A stretch of 64,000 nucleotides of DNA from an uncultured Actinomycetota bacterium (GTDB lineage: Bacteria; Actinomycetota; Actinomycetes; BP-191), in contig CAVXXT010000008.1 in the NCBI GenBank assembly GCA_963765815.1, positions 370,666 to 434,665 on the forward strand. The letters are read 5' to 3'. Below, one piece after another: positions 1 through 3,174 of this stretch. The notes below the pieces were generated by a model, which saw only the letters and a list, made by a program, of their open reading frames with translations, had not been told where the DNA came from and searched no databases. The position numbers and the translations under genes are program-made. Numbering within the stretch: position 1 is the first letter of the stretch; each line of letters begins with the position of its first letter.

Positions 1-841
1 AGACCCAGTTGTAGCCGGGGCCGCGGAACAGCGAGCCGATGGTCGACAGGATCGCCGCCATGATCACGAACCAGGTGAACAGCATGATCGAGAACTTGCG
101 GTTGGCCGGTCGCATCGACGGGTTCTTGTCGAGGTACGGGAAGGCCATCAGCAGCACCAGGCCCACACCCGGGATGGTCACTCCCGCGATCATCGGGTGG
201 AAGTAGCGCAGCAGCTCCTGGAGTCCCAGGAAGTACCACGGCGCCTTCGACGGGTTGGGCGTCAGGTTGACGTTGGCCAGCTGCAGCAGCGGCGCGTCGA
301 CGAAGGTCGAGAACACCACGAGGAAGACGGTGCACGCCATCAGCGCGACCATCTCCTCGAGCAGCAGGTGTGGCCAGACGTTGACCTTGTCGTCCTGGGT
401 CCGCTCGACCCGCTGGATTCCCTCGGGCGGCACCATCGCCAGCAGCCGGTGCGTCATGCCCTCCGCCGTGCCGCGACCGCCGCCGGTGGCCACCGCCCCA
501 CCGCTCTTGGCCATCGCGGCGGCGACCCGCGCCTGCCGCTCGGCGGGTGAGAGCGCGGTCGGCCGGTCCATCGTCGCGGTCCCGACGGCCGCTGCCGCCG
601 GAGCGGCCGCTGCTGCTGCCGGAGCTGCGGCGGGAGCAGCCGCTGCCGCCGCGGGAGCGGCCTCTGCCGCCGGCTCCGCCGCCGCTGCCGCTGCCGCGGC
701 GCTCGGTGAGGGCACCCCTGCCGCCTTGCGCGCCTTCTTGACGGCCGCTGACTTGGCCTTGGCCCGGGCGACACGGTCGGAGTCGCCCGCGGCGATGGCC
801 GCGTCGTACGTCTCCTGGTCGGGAGTGATCTCCTCGGACAT
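1..841 (-). CDS. Cytochrome b C-terminal-domain / b6f subunit-IV-like membrane protein, 3' end truncated by the window edge. Carries an N-terminal Lys/Ala-rich helix plus an Ala/Pro linker.
   Basis: Absent from the ORF track because there is no stop in the window. Manual minus-strand translation from ATG 841..839 gives [39 protein letters not shown](Ala/Pro run)-...VNVWPHLLLEEMVALMACTVF...NPSKAPWYFLGLQELLRYFHP...FSIMLFTWFVIMAAILSTIG. GAGGA Shine-Dalgarno about 6 nt upstream. Lies directly downstream of the b6-like gene. Confidence 0.8.
   Translation of the reverse strand, partial: MSEEITPDQETYDAAIAAGDSDRVARAKAKSAAVKKARKAAGVPSPSAAAAAAAAEPAAEAAPAAAAAAPAAAPAAAAAAPAAAAVGTATMDRPTALSPAERQARVAAAMAKSGGAVATGGGRGTAEGMTHRLLAMVPPEGIQRVERTQDDKVNVWPHLLLEEMVALMACTVFLVVFSTFVDAPLLQLANVNLTPNPSKAPWYFLGLQELLRYFHPMIAGVTIPGVGLVLLMAFPYLDKNPSMRPANRKFSIMLFTWFVIMAAILSTIGSLFRGPGYNWV
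725..820 (-). other. Copy 1 of a shared 32-aa Lys/Ala-rich module ([32 protein letters not shown]) at the N-terminus of the subunit-IV-like protein
   Basis: 27 of 32 residues identical to the C-terminal module of the second NuoI (45340..45435). About 11 synonymous codon differences at identical residues. Confidence 0.85.
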
Positions 842-889
842 CGGGTCCTCGCTCGGGGCTGGTGGGTGCGGTCGCGGGTCGGGTGGTGG

Positions 890-1702
890 CTACAGCGGGC
901 CGGAGATGCCGCCGTCCTTGCGGATGCGCCAGAAGTGCACGGCCATGAAGATGACCGCGACGAACGGCAGCGCGAGCACATGGAGCACATACCAGCGGAG
1001 CAGGGTCGGCGGCCCGATCTCGACCCCGCCGAGGAGGACGAACCGGACCTCCTTACCGAACACCGGGGTGTAGCCCATCATCTGGGTGCCGACGGCGACG
1101 GCCCAGATGGCGAGCTGGTCCCACGGCAGCAGGTAGCCGGTGAAGGACAGCAGCAGGGTGAGCAGCAGCAGGATGACGCCGACCACCCAGTTGAACTCGC
1201 GAGGCGCCTTGTAGGCACCGTGGTAGAAGACCCGCGCCATGTGCAGGAACACGGTGAAGACCATGGCGTGCGCCGACCATCGGTGCAGGTTGCGGATCAT
1301 CTGGCCGAACGTCACACCGGAGGAGAGCGCCCGGATGTCGGCGTACGCGAGCTCCTGGCCGAAGCCGGCCGACGGCCGGTAGAAGAACATCAGGTAGATG
1401 CCGGTGACCGTGAGCAGGATGAAGAGGAAGAAGCTCAGCCCGCCGAGGCAGTAGGTGTACGTCAGCTTGAGCCCGTGCCGCTTCAGCTTCACCGGGTGCA
1501 GGTGGTAGAGCACGTTGTTCATCGTGGCGAGCGCGCGGTCGCGGGAGGTGTCGCGGTAGCCCGGGCGGTAGATCGAGCCCGGCCGGAAGATGGACTTCCA
1601 GACCTGGCCCTCGCGCGGGTCCCGGGGGGCCGCGAAGTCCTTGACCTGGGCCTGGACTTCCTTGATGCGGTCCTTCGGGCTCGGCCGGTCGGCCACGTGC
1701 AT
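890..1702 (-). CDS. Cytochrome b6-type protein (split cytochrome b, N-terminal haem-binding domain)
   Basis: 270-aa ORF. Two bis-His pairs: RNLHRWSAHAMVFTVFLH (13 residues between) and LHVLALPFVAVIFMAVH (14 between, the b6-type spacing). LLPWDQLAIWAV motif. Confidence 0.9.
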   Translation of the reverse strand: MHVADRPSPKDRIKEVQAQVKDFAAPRDPREGQVWKSIFRPGSIYRPGYRDTSRDRALATMNNVLYHLHPVKLKRHGLKLTYTYCLGGLSFFLFILLTVTGIYLMFFYRPSAGFGQELAYADIRALSSGVTFGQMIRNLHRWSAHAMVFTVFLHMARVFYHGAYKAPREFNWVVGVILLLLTLLLSFTGYLLPWDQLAIWAVAVGTQMMGYTPVFGKEVRFVLLGGVEIGPPTLLRWYVLHVLALPFVAVIFMAVHFWRIRKDGGISGPL

Positions 1703-1741
1703 CTCCTTCGACGTCTGCTGGTGCTCGTGCGCTCGGTGGTG

Positions 1742-2095
1742 CTACTTCTTCTTCTTGGGTGCTGCCTCGCCGATCTTGGAGTAGAAGAGCGCGTACGGCG
1801 GGCAGCGGTCGACGCAGATCCCGCAGCGCGTGCACTCGTTGTCGTCGATGATGAAGATCGCGCCGGCGGTCTCGGCCAGCGTCTTCATCTCCGGGTTCTC
1901 GGCGCCGGCCACGACGTCCGGGGACATCATGTAGATGCACTCCCACGGGCAGACGTCCTCGCAGGCCCGGCAGAGGATGCACAGCTCCGGGGCGAGCGCG
2001 ATGTGCCGCTTGGGCTTGACCCGCTCCTGCAGCCAGTTGGGGTCGACGGTGCCGAGGGTGTAGTCGTCGTAGATCTCGACCCGCGCGTCCGTCAT
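1742..2095 (-). CDS. 2x[4Fe-4S] dicluster ferredoxin
   Basis: Two CxxCxxCxxxCP motifs (CILCRACEDVCP, CTRCGICVDRCP). Start taken at the internal ATG 2095..2093, because the upstream part of track ORF 1742..2365 is Arg-rich and overlaps the next gene. ATGA overlap with the upstream ORF. Confidence 0.85.
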   Translation of the reverse strand: MTDARVEIYDDYTLGTVDPNWLQERVKPKRHIALAPELCILCRACEDVCPWECIYMMSPDVVAGAENPEMKTLAETAGAIFIIDDNECTRCGICVDRCPPYALFYSKIGEAAPKKKK

Positions 2096-2403
2096 CGATA
2101 TCCGCCCGGGTCGCGCTTGCCCTCGTCTGCGTCGGCGTTGACCGGGTTCAACCGCTGGTAGAGCGAGAACAGCAGGAACGTCACGTTCACGATCGCGCCG
2201 TGGTAGCCGATGATTCCGACGTCGCGGATGCGCGGGGCGATGTCCGGGTTGTCCTCGAGGATCGACCACTCGTCGGTCCAGGCGATCAGCGCCGACGGGA
2301 TCGCGCCGTAGAAGATCAGGAACGCGATCGTCATCAGCAGTGAGGCGACGGTCACCCGTAGCCAAACGGAGTCAGTGAGACGGGGCGGGGCCTGTCCCTG
2401 CAT
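2092..2403 (-). CDS. Small (103 aa) two-TM membrane protein, first gene of the ferredoxin/b6 operon
   Basis: C-terminal part of track ORF 2092..3225: MQGQAPPRLTDSVWLRVTVASLLMTIAFLIFYG...GIIGYHGAIVNVTFLLFSLYQRL. Its stop overlaps the ferredoxin start. No recognisable family. Confidence 0.55.
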   Translation of the reverse strand: MQGQAPPRLTDSVWLRVTVASLLMTIAFLIFYGAIPSALIAWTDEWSILEDNPDIAPRIRDVGIIGYHGAIVNVTFLLFSLYQRLNPVNADADEGKRDPGGYR

Positions 2404-2586
2404 GACACCGCTCCTCGTCGATGCGGCACGGCATGCCGTGCGTGCTGTACGTCGCGGGCAGGGGCTCCTGCTCGCTGCGATACTACGGGTGTGGGGATTA
2501 CCCCGCGAATCCAACCAGCCCCGCGCGTCGCACGTCGGACGCGCCACTCGACGACGCCGATCCGTGGCGAAGAAGGACCTCTCGGG

Positions 2587-3174
2587 ATGCGGGTCGCCGA
2601 CCGTCGACTGGTCCGCCGGACGGCTGTCGCGGTGGCCTTCCTCGTCGCCACGTCGGCCGGCTGCGAGGGGTCGCGTCGCGAGGTCGACTCGCCGGTGGGC
2701 GGCAGCGGTTTCCGGGTCGGCGACGGCACCGCGACGCTCGTCGCGGCGGAGGACCGGCGCCCGGCGCCGACCTTGCGCGGGACCACCCTCGACGGCGACT
2801 CCCTCGACGTCGCGTCGCTGCGCGGCTCCGTCGTCGTCCTGAACGTGTGGGGGTCGTGGTGCGCCCCGTGCAAGAAGGAGCAGCCGGAGCTGCAGCGGGC
2901 GGCGACCGACCTGGCCGGCGAGGGCGTCAGGTTCGTCGGCATCAACGTGCGCGATCGGACCAAGGGCAATGCCCTCGCGCACAACCGCAGGTACGACGTC
3001 ACCTACCCGAGCCTTTTCGACCCGAGCGCGCGGTTGGTCGCGCGATTCGAGGACCTGCCGCCCAGCGCGATCCCGACGACGGTCGTCATCGACCGTGACG
3101 GCCGGGTGGCCGCGCGGGTGCTGGGGGCGACGTCGTACGACGAGCTGGTCGGCCTGGTCCGGCGCATCGCATGA
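2587..3174 (+). CDS. resA: Thiol-disulfide oxidoreductase ResA/TlpA-like lipoprotein (cytochrome c maturation)
   Basis: WCAPC thioredoxin motif. Signal peptide with lipobox-like SAGC. Start at ATG 2587 (MRVADRRLVRR...). Confidence 0.85.
   Translation: MRVADRRLVRRTAVAVAFLVATSAGCEGSRREVDSPVGGSGFRVGDGTATLVAAEDRRPAPTLRGTTLDGDSLDVASLRGSVVVLNVWGSWCAPCKKEQPELQRAATDLAGEGVRFVGINVRDRTKGNALAHNRRYDVTYPSLFDPSARLVARFEDLPPSAIPTTVVIDRDGRVAARVLGATSYDELVGLVRRIA

Follow-up and report, generated by a model that had tools for sequence, protein, structure and literature searches.

A predicted seven-gene b6-type Rieske/cytochrome b operon with a conserved ferredoxin gene in an uncultured actinomycetote

What is a gene for a small two-cluster ferredoxin doing near the head of a cytochrome b6 operon, and does its product stand in for a Rieske protein? 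The question is raised by coordinates 1-2403 of a stretch of 64,000 nucleotides (nt) of DNA from an uncultured Actinomycetota bacterium, here called the window (G000:C8:370666-434665), which is part of an 824-kb contig that continues left of coordinate 1. A first-pass annotation, made from the letters of the window alone, had headlined a split cytochrome b6/subunit IV operon headed by a ferredoxin gene and with no Rieske gene in view. We examined 15 kb of DNA left of the window (part of the locus L002) and found that the operon has seven genes, all on the minus strand, of which coordinates 1-2403 cover the 5' half. Based on its gene content and on its conservation in related genomes, this is very probably a complete b6-type Rieske/cytochrome b operon, with the ferredoxin as one of its conserved components.

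A b6-type operon that crosses the window edge

The seven genes are given here in operon order (aa, amino acids; ORF, open reading frame), with positions in the window unless they are prefixed L002:

2092-2403, minus strand: small membrane protein, first gene of the operon (103-aa ORF, without Pfam or NCBIfam match)
1742-2095, minus strand: 2x[4Fe-4S] ferredoxin (117 aa, matching Pfam Fer4 families)
890-1702, minus strand: cytochrome b6 (270 aa, PF00033, E 3e-42)
1-841 (ORF 2-841), minus strand: subunit IV (first 280 of 291 codons in the window; PF00032, E about 4e-10 to 9e-10)
L002:14388-14948, minus strand: Rieske protein, exported by twin-arginine translocation (Tat) (186 aa, PF00355, CAHLGC...CPCHGS, Tat motif RRDFF), starting 16 nt past the end of subunit IV
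Left of the window, 68 nt after the Rieske gene, minus strand: membrane-anchored monohaem cytochrome c (223 aa, PF00034, single CARCH)
29 nt after the cytochrome c gene, minus strand: last membrane protein (392-aa ORF, without family match)

The genes are closely packed, the first two overlapping in an ATGA and the following ones being separated by 39, 48, 16, 68 and 29 nt, and no convincing terminator was found inside the operon on the operon strand. Subunit IV, 291 aa long in full, ends at L002:14965, that is 35 nt left of the window, and the Rieske and cytochrome c genes follow it. The "missing" Rieske gene is therefore an artefact of the window edge: the headline of the first-pass annotation is true inside the window only, both genes lying just left of coordinate 1, and the correction of this edge effect is the main value of the present finding.

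It had also been held that a Rieske gene and a cytochrome c gene immediately downstream would turn the locus into an ordinary Qcr-type operon. As far as gene content goes this is what we found, both genes being immediately downstream, but the operon is not of the Qcr type, since its products remain far below the cut-offs of the NCBIfam models for actinobacterial QcrB (NF050120; 106 bits versus a cut-off of 500) and QcrA (28 versus 275). With the actinobacterial QcrCAB (bcc) complex, found in the same phylum, the encoded complex would share the job of menaquinol:cytochrome c reduction. Yet QcrB is long and unsplit, QcrC is a dihaem protein and the genes are arranged as qcrCAB without a ferredoxin, whereas here cytochrome b is split, with a separate b6, and the cytochrome c carries a single CARCH.

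The assignment of the cytochrome b gene to the b6 type, initially proposed from four histidines and a PWDQ motif, is borne out by our analysis: the histidines form the pairs H140/H154 and H241/H256, the expected ligands of haems bp and bn, and PWDQ is found at residue 193. A further motif, absent from the first-pass annotation, is CxGG (YCLGG, residue 85), the motif for covalent binding of haem cn in helix A, so that such an attachment can be predicted for this protein. The b6 also has a basic N-terminal extension of 80 residues, and its closest relatives of solved structure are chloroplast and cyanobacterial PetB chains (E 1e-44). The operon indeed resembles those of the b6f complexes of cyanobacteria and chloroplasts and of the b6c complexes of Bacillota and heliobacteria in its split b6 and subunit IV, in the haem-cn motif CxGG and in its PetC-like Rieske protein (58 bits on the NCBIfam PetC model, below the cut-off). 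It differs from them in the lack of a cytochrome f, in a Qo motif that reads APWY instead of PEWY or PDWY, and in the presence of two extra membrane proteins and of the ferredoxin gene.

Subunit IV consists of a Lys/Ala-rich N-terminal module, an Ala/Pro linker and a three-helix core, which bears the Qo motif APWY (SKAPWYFLGLQELL); the Qo region contains APWYFLGLQELL. A variant of the PEWY loop had been noticed before and was described as a replacement of Glu by Ala. The motif is altered, but not in this manner: in an alignment to a solved cytochrome b, Pro takes the position of the Glu, and Ala that of the first Pro. As a side observation, the Lys/Ala-rich module (residues ~8-55, window 680-820, minus strand) has tblastn matches in 50 related loci, and it was modelled by AlphaFold2 as confident helices (predicted local distance difference test, pLDDT, of 86-94) within the read-through chain described below.

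Two further side observations concern the genes at the 3' end. The stop of the Rieske gene (L002:14345-14395, in the spacer between the Rieske and cytochrome c genes) sits in three tandem 15-nt copies (CGGCTGTGTTGGAT..) that close with TGA, TAA and TAG in one frame and so form a triple in-frame stop, which seems, from the sequence of the copies, to stem from a tandem duplication of the final codons. The frame of the last membrane protein (L002:12440-12840), for its part, continues for ~120 Arg/Ala/Pro-rich codons, whereas close relatives stop ~20-25 residues after the final transmembrane (TM) helix; this overlong 3' end is probably the result of a lost stop or of a frameshift in the assembly.

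Conservation of the ferredoxin with cytochrome b6

The 117-aa product of the second gene has the two clusters that the first-pass annotation had ascribed to it, with the ligand motifs C39-x2-C-x2-C-x3-CP and C88-x2-C-x2-C-x3-CP. It has an isoelectric point of 4.9, and since both a signal peptide and a TM segment are absent, the ferredoxin should reside in the cytoplasm. In type it is NuoI/polyferredoxin-like; NuoI itself was considered and rejected, as the protein obtains 38 bits on TIGR01971 against a cut-off of 113 and lies in the context of a bc operon, not of a nuo operon. A word-indexed search delineated a tight family with members of 113-133 aa, and the family alignment displays an invariant N-terminal motif (Y12, V17, D18, W21, L22) that is made up of residues other than the cluster ligands. 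Apart from these features, a ninth cysteine (C53, window 1937-1939), placed within CPW[EDN]CI just past the first cluster motif, is invariant family-wide, and the ferredoxins of L097, L098 and L099 (G133, G160 and G238) carry at the C-terminus a conserved aromatic tail (...DTGxRDxKNGYxYGxRW); the window ferredoxin is without it and ends in KKKK.

We scanned a public collection, taking one genome per species, and found relatives of the ferredoxin in 401 species genomes, at least one of which is that of an isolate (Salsipaludibacter albus, L083). Gene context was analyzed for the best 80 of the 401 and for long-contig contexts, amounting to 84 loci. The order ferredoxin, b6, subunit IV, Rieske, cytochrome c and last membrane protein is kept in all 84 as far as the contigs reach, the ferredoxin gene being followed by b6 in each of the 81 loci whose contig continues. 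The three long-contig contexts have an identical order that also takes in the small protein (small protein, ferredoxin, b6, subunit IV, Rieske, cytochrome c). In a sample of the phylum the ferredoxin was detected in 125 of 301 genomes, and wherever long-contig genomes were cross-checked (17/17), it was encoded 60-250 nt 5' of b6 on the same strand. The conservation of the ferredoxin together with b6 in relatives, on which the first-pass annotation had made its idea depend, is thus upheld by both sets, the 81 loci and the 17 long-contig genomes.

The degree of conservation of the individual proteins was compared over 49 loci from outside the family of the window. Median identities amount to 78% for b6, 69% for the ferredoxin, 63% for the core of subunit IV, 47% for the Rieske protein and 37% for cytochrome c, which makes the ferredoxin the second most conserved product of the operon in these loci.

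The small membrane protein encoded by the first gene shows another pattern. Its 103-aa ORF, with a stop that overlaps the ferredoxin start as ATGA, had been recognized correctly in the window, and we found a GAGGAG ribosome-binding site 7 nt before its ATG. Homologues of 128-223 aa are present in L008, L009, L011, L093, L094, L099, L101 and L102, their genes being located 5' of the ferredoxin gene or, in operons without a ferredoxin, directly 5' of b6. Family members have in common G-[AIV]-IPS-x-W, located within a TM helix, and GGY[RK] at the C-terminus. We regard it as a conserved yet fast-evolving family, too divergent for tblastn.

Does the ferredoxin exchange electrons with the complex?

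A possible function of the ferredoxin is suggested by a second, paralogous b6 (~54% identity) that is present in 16 genomes of the phylum sample. In the 12 genomes that were cross-checked, the paralogous b6 is preceded by an open frame of 600-900 aa, to which the window ferredoxin has a weak match. In the Actinomycetota genome G157, this paralogous operon (L095:4813-11039) comprises genes for an arm protein, b6, a subunit IV that also reads APWY, a Rieske protein, a monohaem cytochrome c and a cupredoxin protein. The arm protein (599 aa) is a GltD-like NAD(P)/FAD/FeS protein composed of Fer4_20, a pyridine-nucleotide/FAD domain and, at its C-terminus, a dicluster domain. With this last domain the ferredoxin shares 39% identity over 82 aa, the insert between the two clusters included, and the arm gene lies directly 5' of b6, as the ferredoxin gene does here. 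Because of this common position and of the homology, the ferredoxin is likely to be the counterpart of the membrane-proximal end of the arm. The b6 of L095 is without the Cys of CxGG, unlike that of the window operon, which retains it. The cupredoxin protein at the end of the L095 operon, a side observation, is 741 aa long and consists of repeated sulfocyanin-like cupredoxin domains.

Arms of this kind have been reported in other systems. Cytochromes b of subfamily G co-occur with arm-type proteins carrying NAD(P), FAD and Fe-S (Dibrova et al. 2017, PMC5600118), and in the anammox complexes of Kuenenia (Kuste4569-4574 and Kustd1480-1485) modelling has placed an NAD(P) reductase at the n-side, connected to haems bn/cn by an Fe-S chain (PMC12954380). 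Like the anammox complexes, the window operon encodes a b6-type core and subunit IV, with an iron-sulfur module for the cytoplasmic side encoded alongside. It differs from the anammox type in that the NAD(P)/FAD domain is absent, the two-cluster module being a separate protein of 117 aa, and in that the cytochrome c is a monohaem protein, whereas multihaem cytochromes are found there.

Based on these comparisons of sequence and gene order, we tentatively propose that the ferredoxin may represent the surviving membrane-proximal iron-sulfur module of a cytoplasmic NAD(P)-linked arm, exchanging electrons near haems bn/cn. It would sit at the cytoplasmic face close to these haems, or visit it, and electrons would move between the cytoplasm and the n-side site in one direction or the other. 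The link between the ferredoxin and the n-side (Qi), which we infer, is plausible and is made more concrete by the homology to the paralogous NAD(P) arm. That the ferredoxin is in fact docked there, or is a working port, appears conceivable and, on the whole, doubtful.

Alternatively, the ferredoxin could be a free cytoplasmic carrier, or an Fe-S housekeeping protein, that shares the transcript of complex III and never binds to the complex or exchanges electrons with it. We take this as a serious possibility, if one that still falls short of being probable, and several observations weigh in its favour and against a role of the ferredoxin within the complex. The protein is small, acidic and soluble and has no TM segment, as would suit a free carrier. 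Moreover, it is missing in four of the six sampled genomes of the family f53, where the operon occurs without the ferredoxin and the small membrane gene abuts b6. If the loss had been correlated with changes in its partner, the b6 of these genomes would be expected to be altered; its N-terminal extension and CxGG are both unchanged, and the core enzyme can therefore do without the ferredoxin. No fusion of the ferredoxin with a membrane protein was found among the cases inspected. Open frames of 268-1508 aa around ferredoxin matches were considered as fusion candidates and discarded, as they turned out to be Arg-rich off-frame junk before normal ATG starts.

Fold predictions gave no evidence for an interface either. 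Folded alone with AlphaFold2, the ferredoxin reached a pLDDT of 48, too poor for a fold search. As the genes for the ferredoxin, b6 and subunit IV are in a single reading frame with TAG stops between them, a pseudo-complex was made by reading TAG as Gln, and the resulting chain of 698 aa was folded with a block alignment of 135 rows; it obtained a pLDDT of 61 and a predicted template modelling score (pTM) of 0.45, without coordinates or predicted aligned error. The pLDDT of the ferredoxin rose from 48 alone to about 58-89 in this read-through chain, a gain that is confounded by the deeper alignment.

On the other side, a protein that is independent of the complex does not readily fit with the persistence of the ferredoxin gene in the slot directly 5' of b6, which is kept in 81/81 loci and across several classes. 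In the phylum sample, every ferredoxin match stronger than E 1e-20 adjoins b6, contig-edge cases aside. The conservation of the ferredoxin exceeds that of the Rieske protein, of cytochrome c and of the core of subunit IV, and extends to the N-terminal motif outside the cluster ligands. Finally, a homologue of the ferredoxin is covalently built into the arm protein of the paralogous operon.

A catalogued clade and its respiratory role

Split cytochromes b with PEWY or APWY have been listed from Rubrobacteridae and Ilumatobacter as independent of actinobacterial QcrB (Kao & Hunte 2014, PMC4122944; Dibrova et al. 2017, PMC5600118). The APWY clade of Kao & Hunte, which probably coincides in part with "subfamily G" of Dibrova et al. 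2017 (PMC5600118), resembles the window operon in its split cytochrome b, in the Pro at the Glu position of the Qo motif and in a short b6 with CxGG. We would assign the operon to the APWY clade/subfamily G, a placement that rests on these motifs and on the ExtP-model score (see below), not on a tree. For the APWY clade, a reverse operation has been suggested by Kao & Hunte (PMC4122944), whereas here an aa3-type oxidase is encoded in the genome and no complex III other than that of the operon was found. The clade is already catalogued in print, and the ferredoxin gene is the only unusual feature of the operon. A small dicluster ferredoxin gene is mentioned in neither Kao & Hunte 2014 (PMC4122944) nor Dibrova et al. 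2017 (PMC5600118), and our literature searches, which did not take in the operon figures of Dibrova et al. 2013 (PMC3839093), brought up no published account of the ferredoxin. Among the solved Rieske/cytochrome b structures in the PDB, none holds a relative of the window ferredoxin.

The ExtP-model score is also what speaks for another reading of the operon, as an Ext-type module for selenite/tellurite reduction or extracellular electron transfer like ExtOPQ of Geobacter, given that the b6 obtains 295.4 bits on NF040969 (cytb_ExtP; cut-off 290). This reading is very improbable. Subunit IV stays at 50 bits on the ExtQ model against a cut-off of 150, and the Ext cluster of Geobacter, which is without a ferredoxin, has as its defining members a porin, a rhodanese and cytochromes with 4 to 12 haems (PMC5877670), whereas Pfam scans of the operon and of the downstream ORFs to ~L002:6600 revealed none of the Ext partners (ExtKL/M/N/S, the porin ExtI and the rhodanese ExtH) and one monohaem cytochrome c. 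Furthermore, no cytochrome b other than the operon b6 was found in the genome, which also encodes an aa3-type oxidase. Because the score is just above the cut-off of NF040969, automatic annotation will name this respiratory b6 "ExtP, selenite/tellurite reduction operon", a name that is misleading here.

Practically untenable, finally, is a Rieske-less, ferredoxin-driven cytochrome b module with the ferredoxin in the place of the Rieske protein and a different electron input or output, an idea that came from a window in which no Rieske gene is visible and the ferredoxin gene stands near the cluster head: the Rieske and cytochrome c genes lie directly after subunit IV on the same strand, here and in every related locus that is long enough.

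Most likely, the operon encodes the quinol:cytochrome c oxidoreductase of the organism, with menaquinol as the presumed quinol, because its b6 is the one PF00033 match in the genome and an aa3-type oxidase is encoded as well (COX1 match of 548 bits, contig C1). Following the established Rieske/cytochrome b mechanism, quinol would be oxidised at Qo (APWY), with one electron passing to the Rieske protein, then to cytochrome c and to the aa3-type oxidase, while the second electron would pass from haems bp to bn and cn, and from there to the n-side quinone site.

Two observations count against this role as the only complex III. The genome is 83.9% complete, and a second cytochrome b could therefore be missing from it. 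In addition, three genomes of the GTDB order to which the window belongs have a weak QcrB-type match (G316:C4:4304-4873, G309:C188:9849-10412 and G314:C173:4586-5068). This order comprises 17 species, all of them metagenome-assembled genomes and all in one family, and 15 of them besides the genome of the window have a full-length b6 of the same type. The QcrB-type match of G316 and G309 lies in an open frame of 555-565 aa and is found alongside a full b6-type match, while that of G314, in a frame of 209 aa, is the only match of its genome. There may be two types of complex III in some of these relatives, or the bins may be contaminated. In the genomes sampled from other orders in this class, all matches are of the QcrB type, and the ferredoxin is absent.

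Upstream, the operon faces a divergently oriented gene:

2404-2490: spacer separating the operon from the divergent resA-like thioredoxin gene, presumed to contain the promoter(s)
2491-3174, plus strand: resA-like thioredoxin gene, the product of which matches AhpC-TSA/Redoxin

A sigma-70 consensus was not found for the operon and the divergent spacer, nor was a Rex-type box near the operon.

Whether electrons at the level of ferredoxin enter b6-type complexes by way of haem cn, and how, has long been a matter of debate for cyclic photosynthetic electron flow. For b6f, such an input has been put forward only as a hypothesis, with free ferredoxin or FNR as the donor. Whether electrons are driven out to NAD(P) in the anammox complexes is equally unsettled. 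The operon described here is a stripped-down natural case for both questions, in which a b6 core that carries CxGG is accompanied on its cytoplasmic side by one dedicated two-cluster protein only. Natural comparisons are available in the paralogous operons with a full NAD(P) arm and in the family that lost the ferredoxin. We think it unlikely that the ferredoxin is a genuine subunit on the n-side, connecting haems bn/cn with the low-potential pool of the cytoplasm and thereby adding a third electron port to the complex. If it were, the complex would carry out either ferredoxin:menaquinone reduction at Qi, the "FQR" route that has been hypothesised for b6f, or quinol-driven reduction of ferredoxin as proposed for anammox, and the operon would represent a minimal version of either route, in cultivable aerobes.

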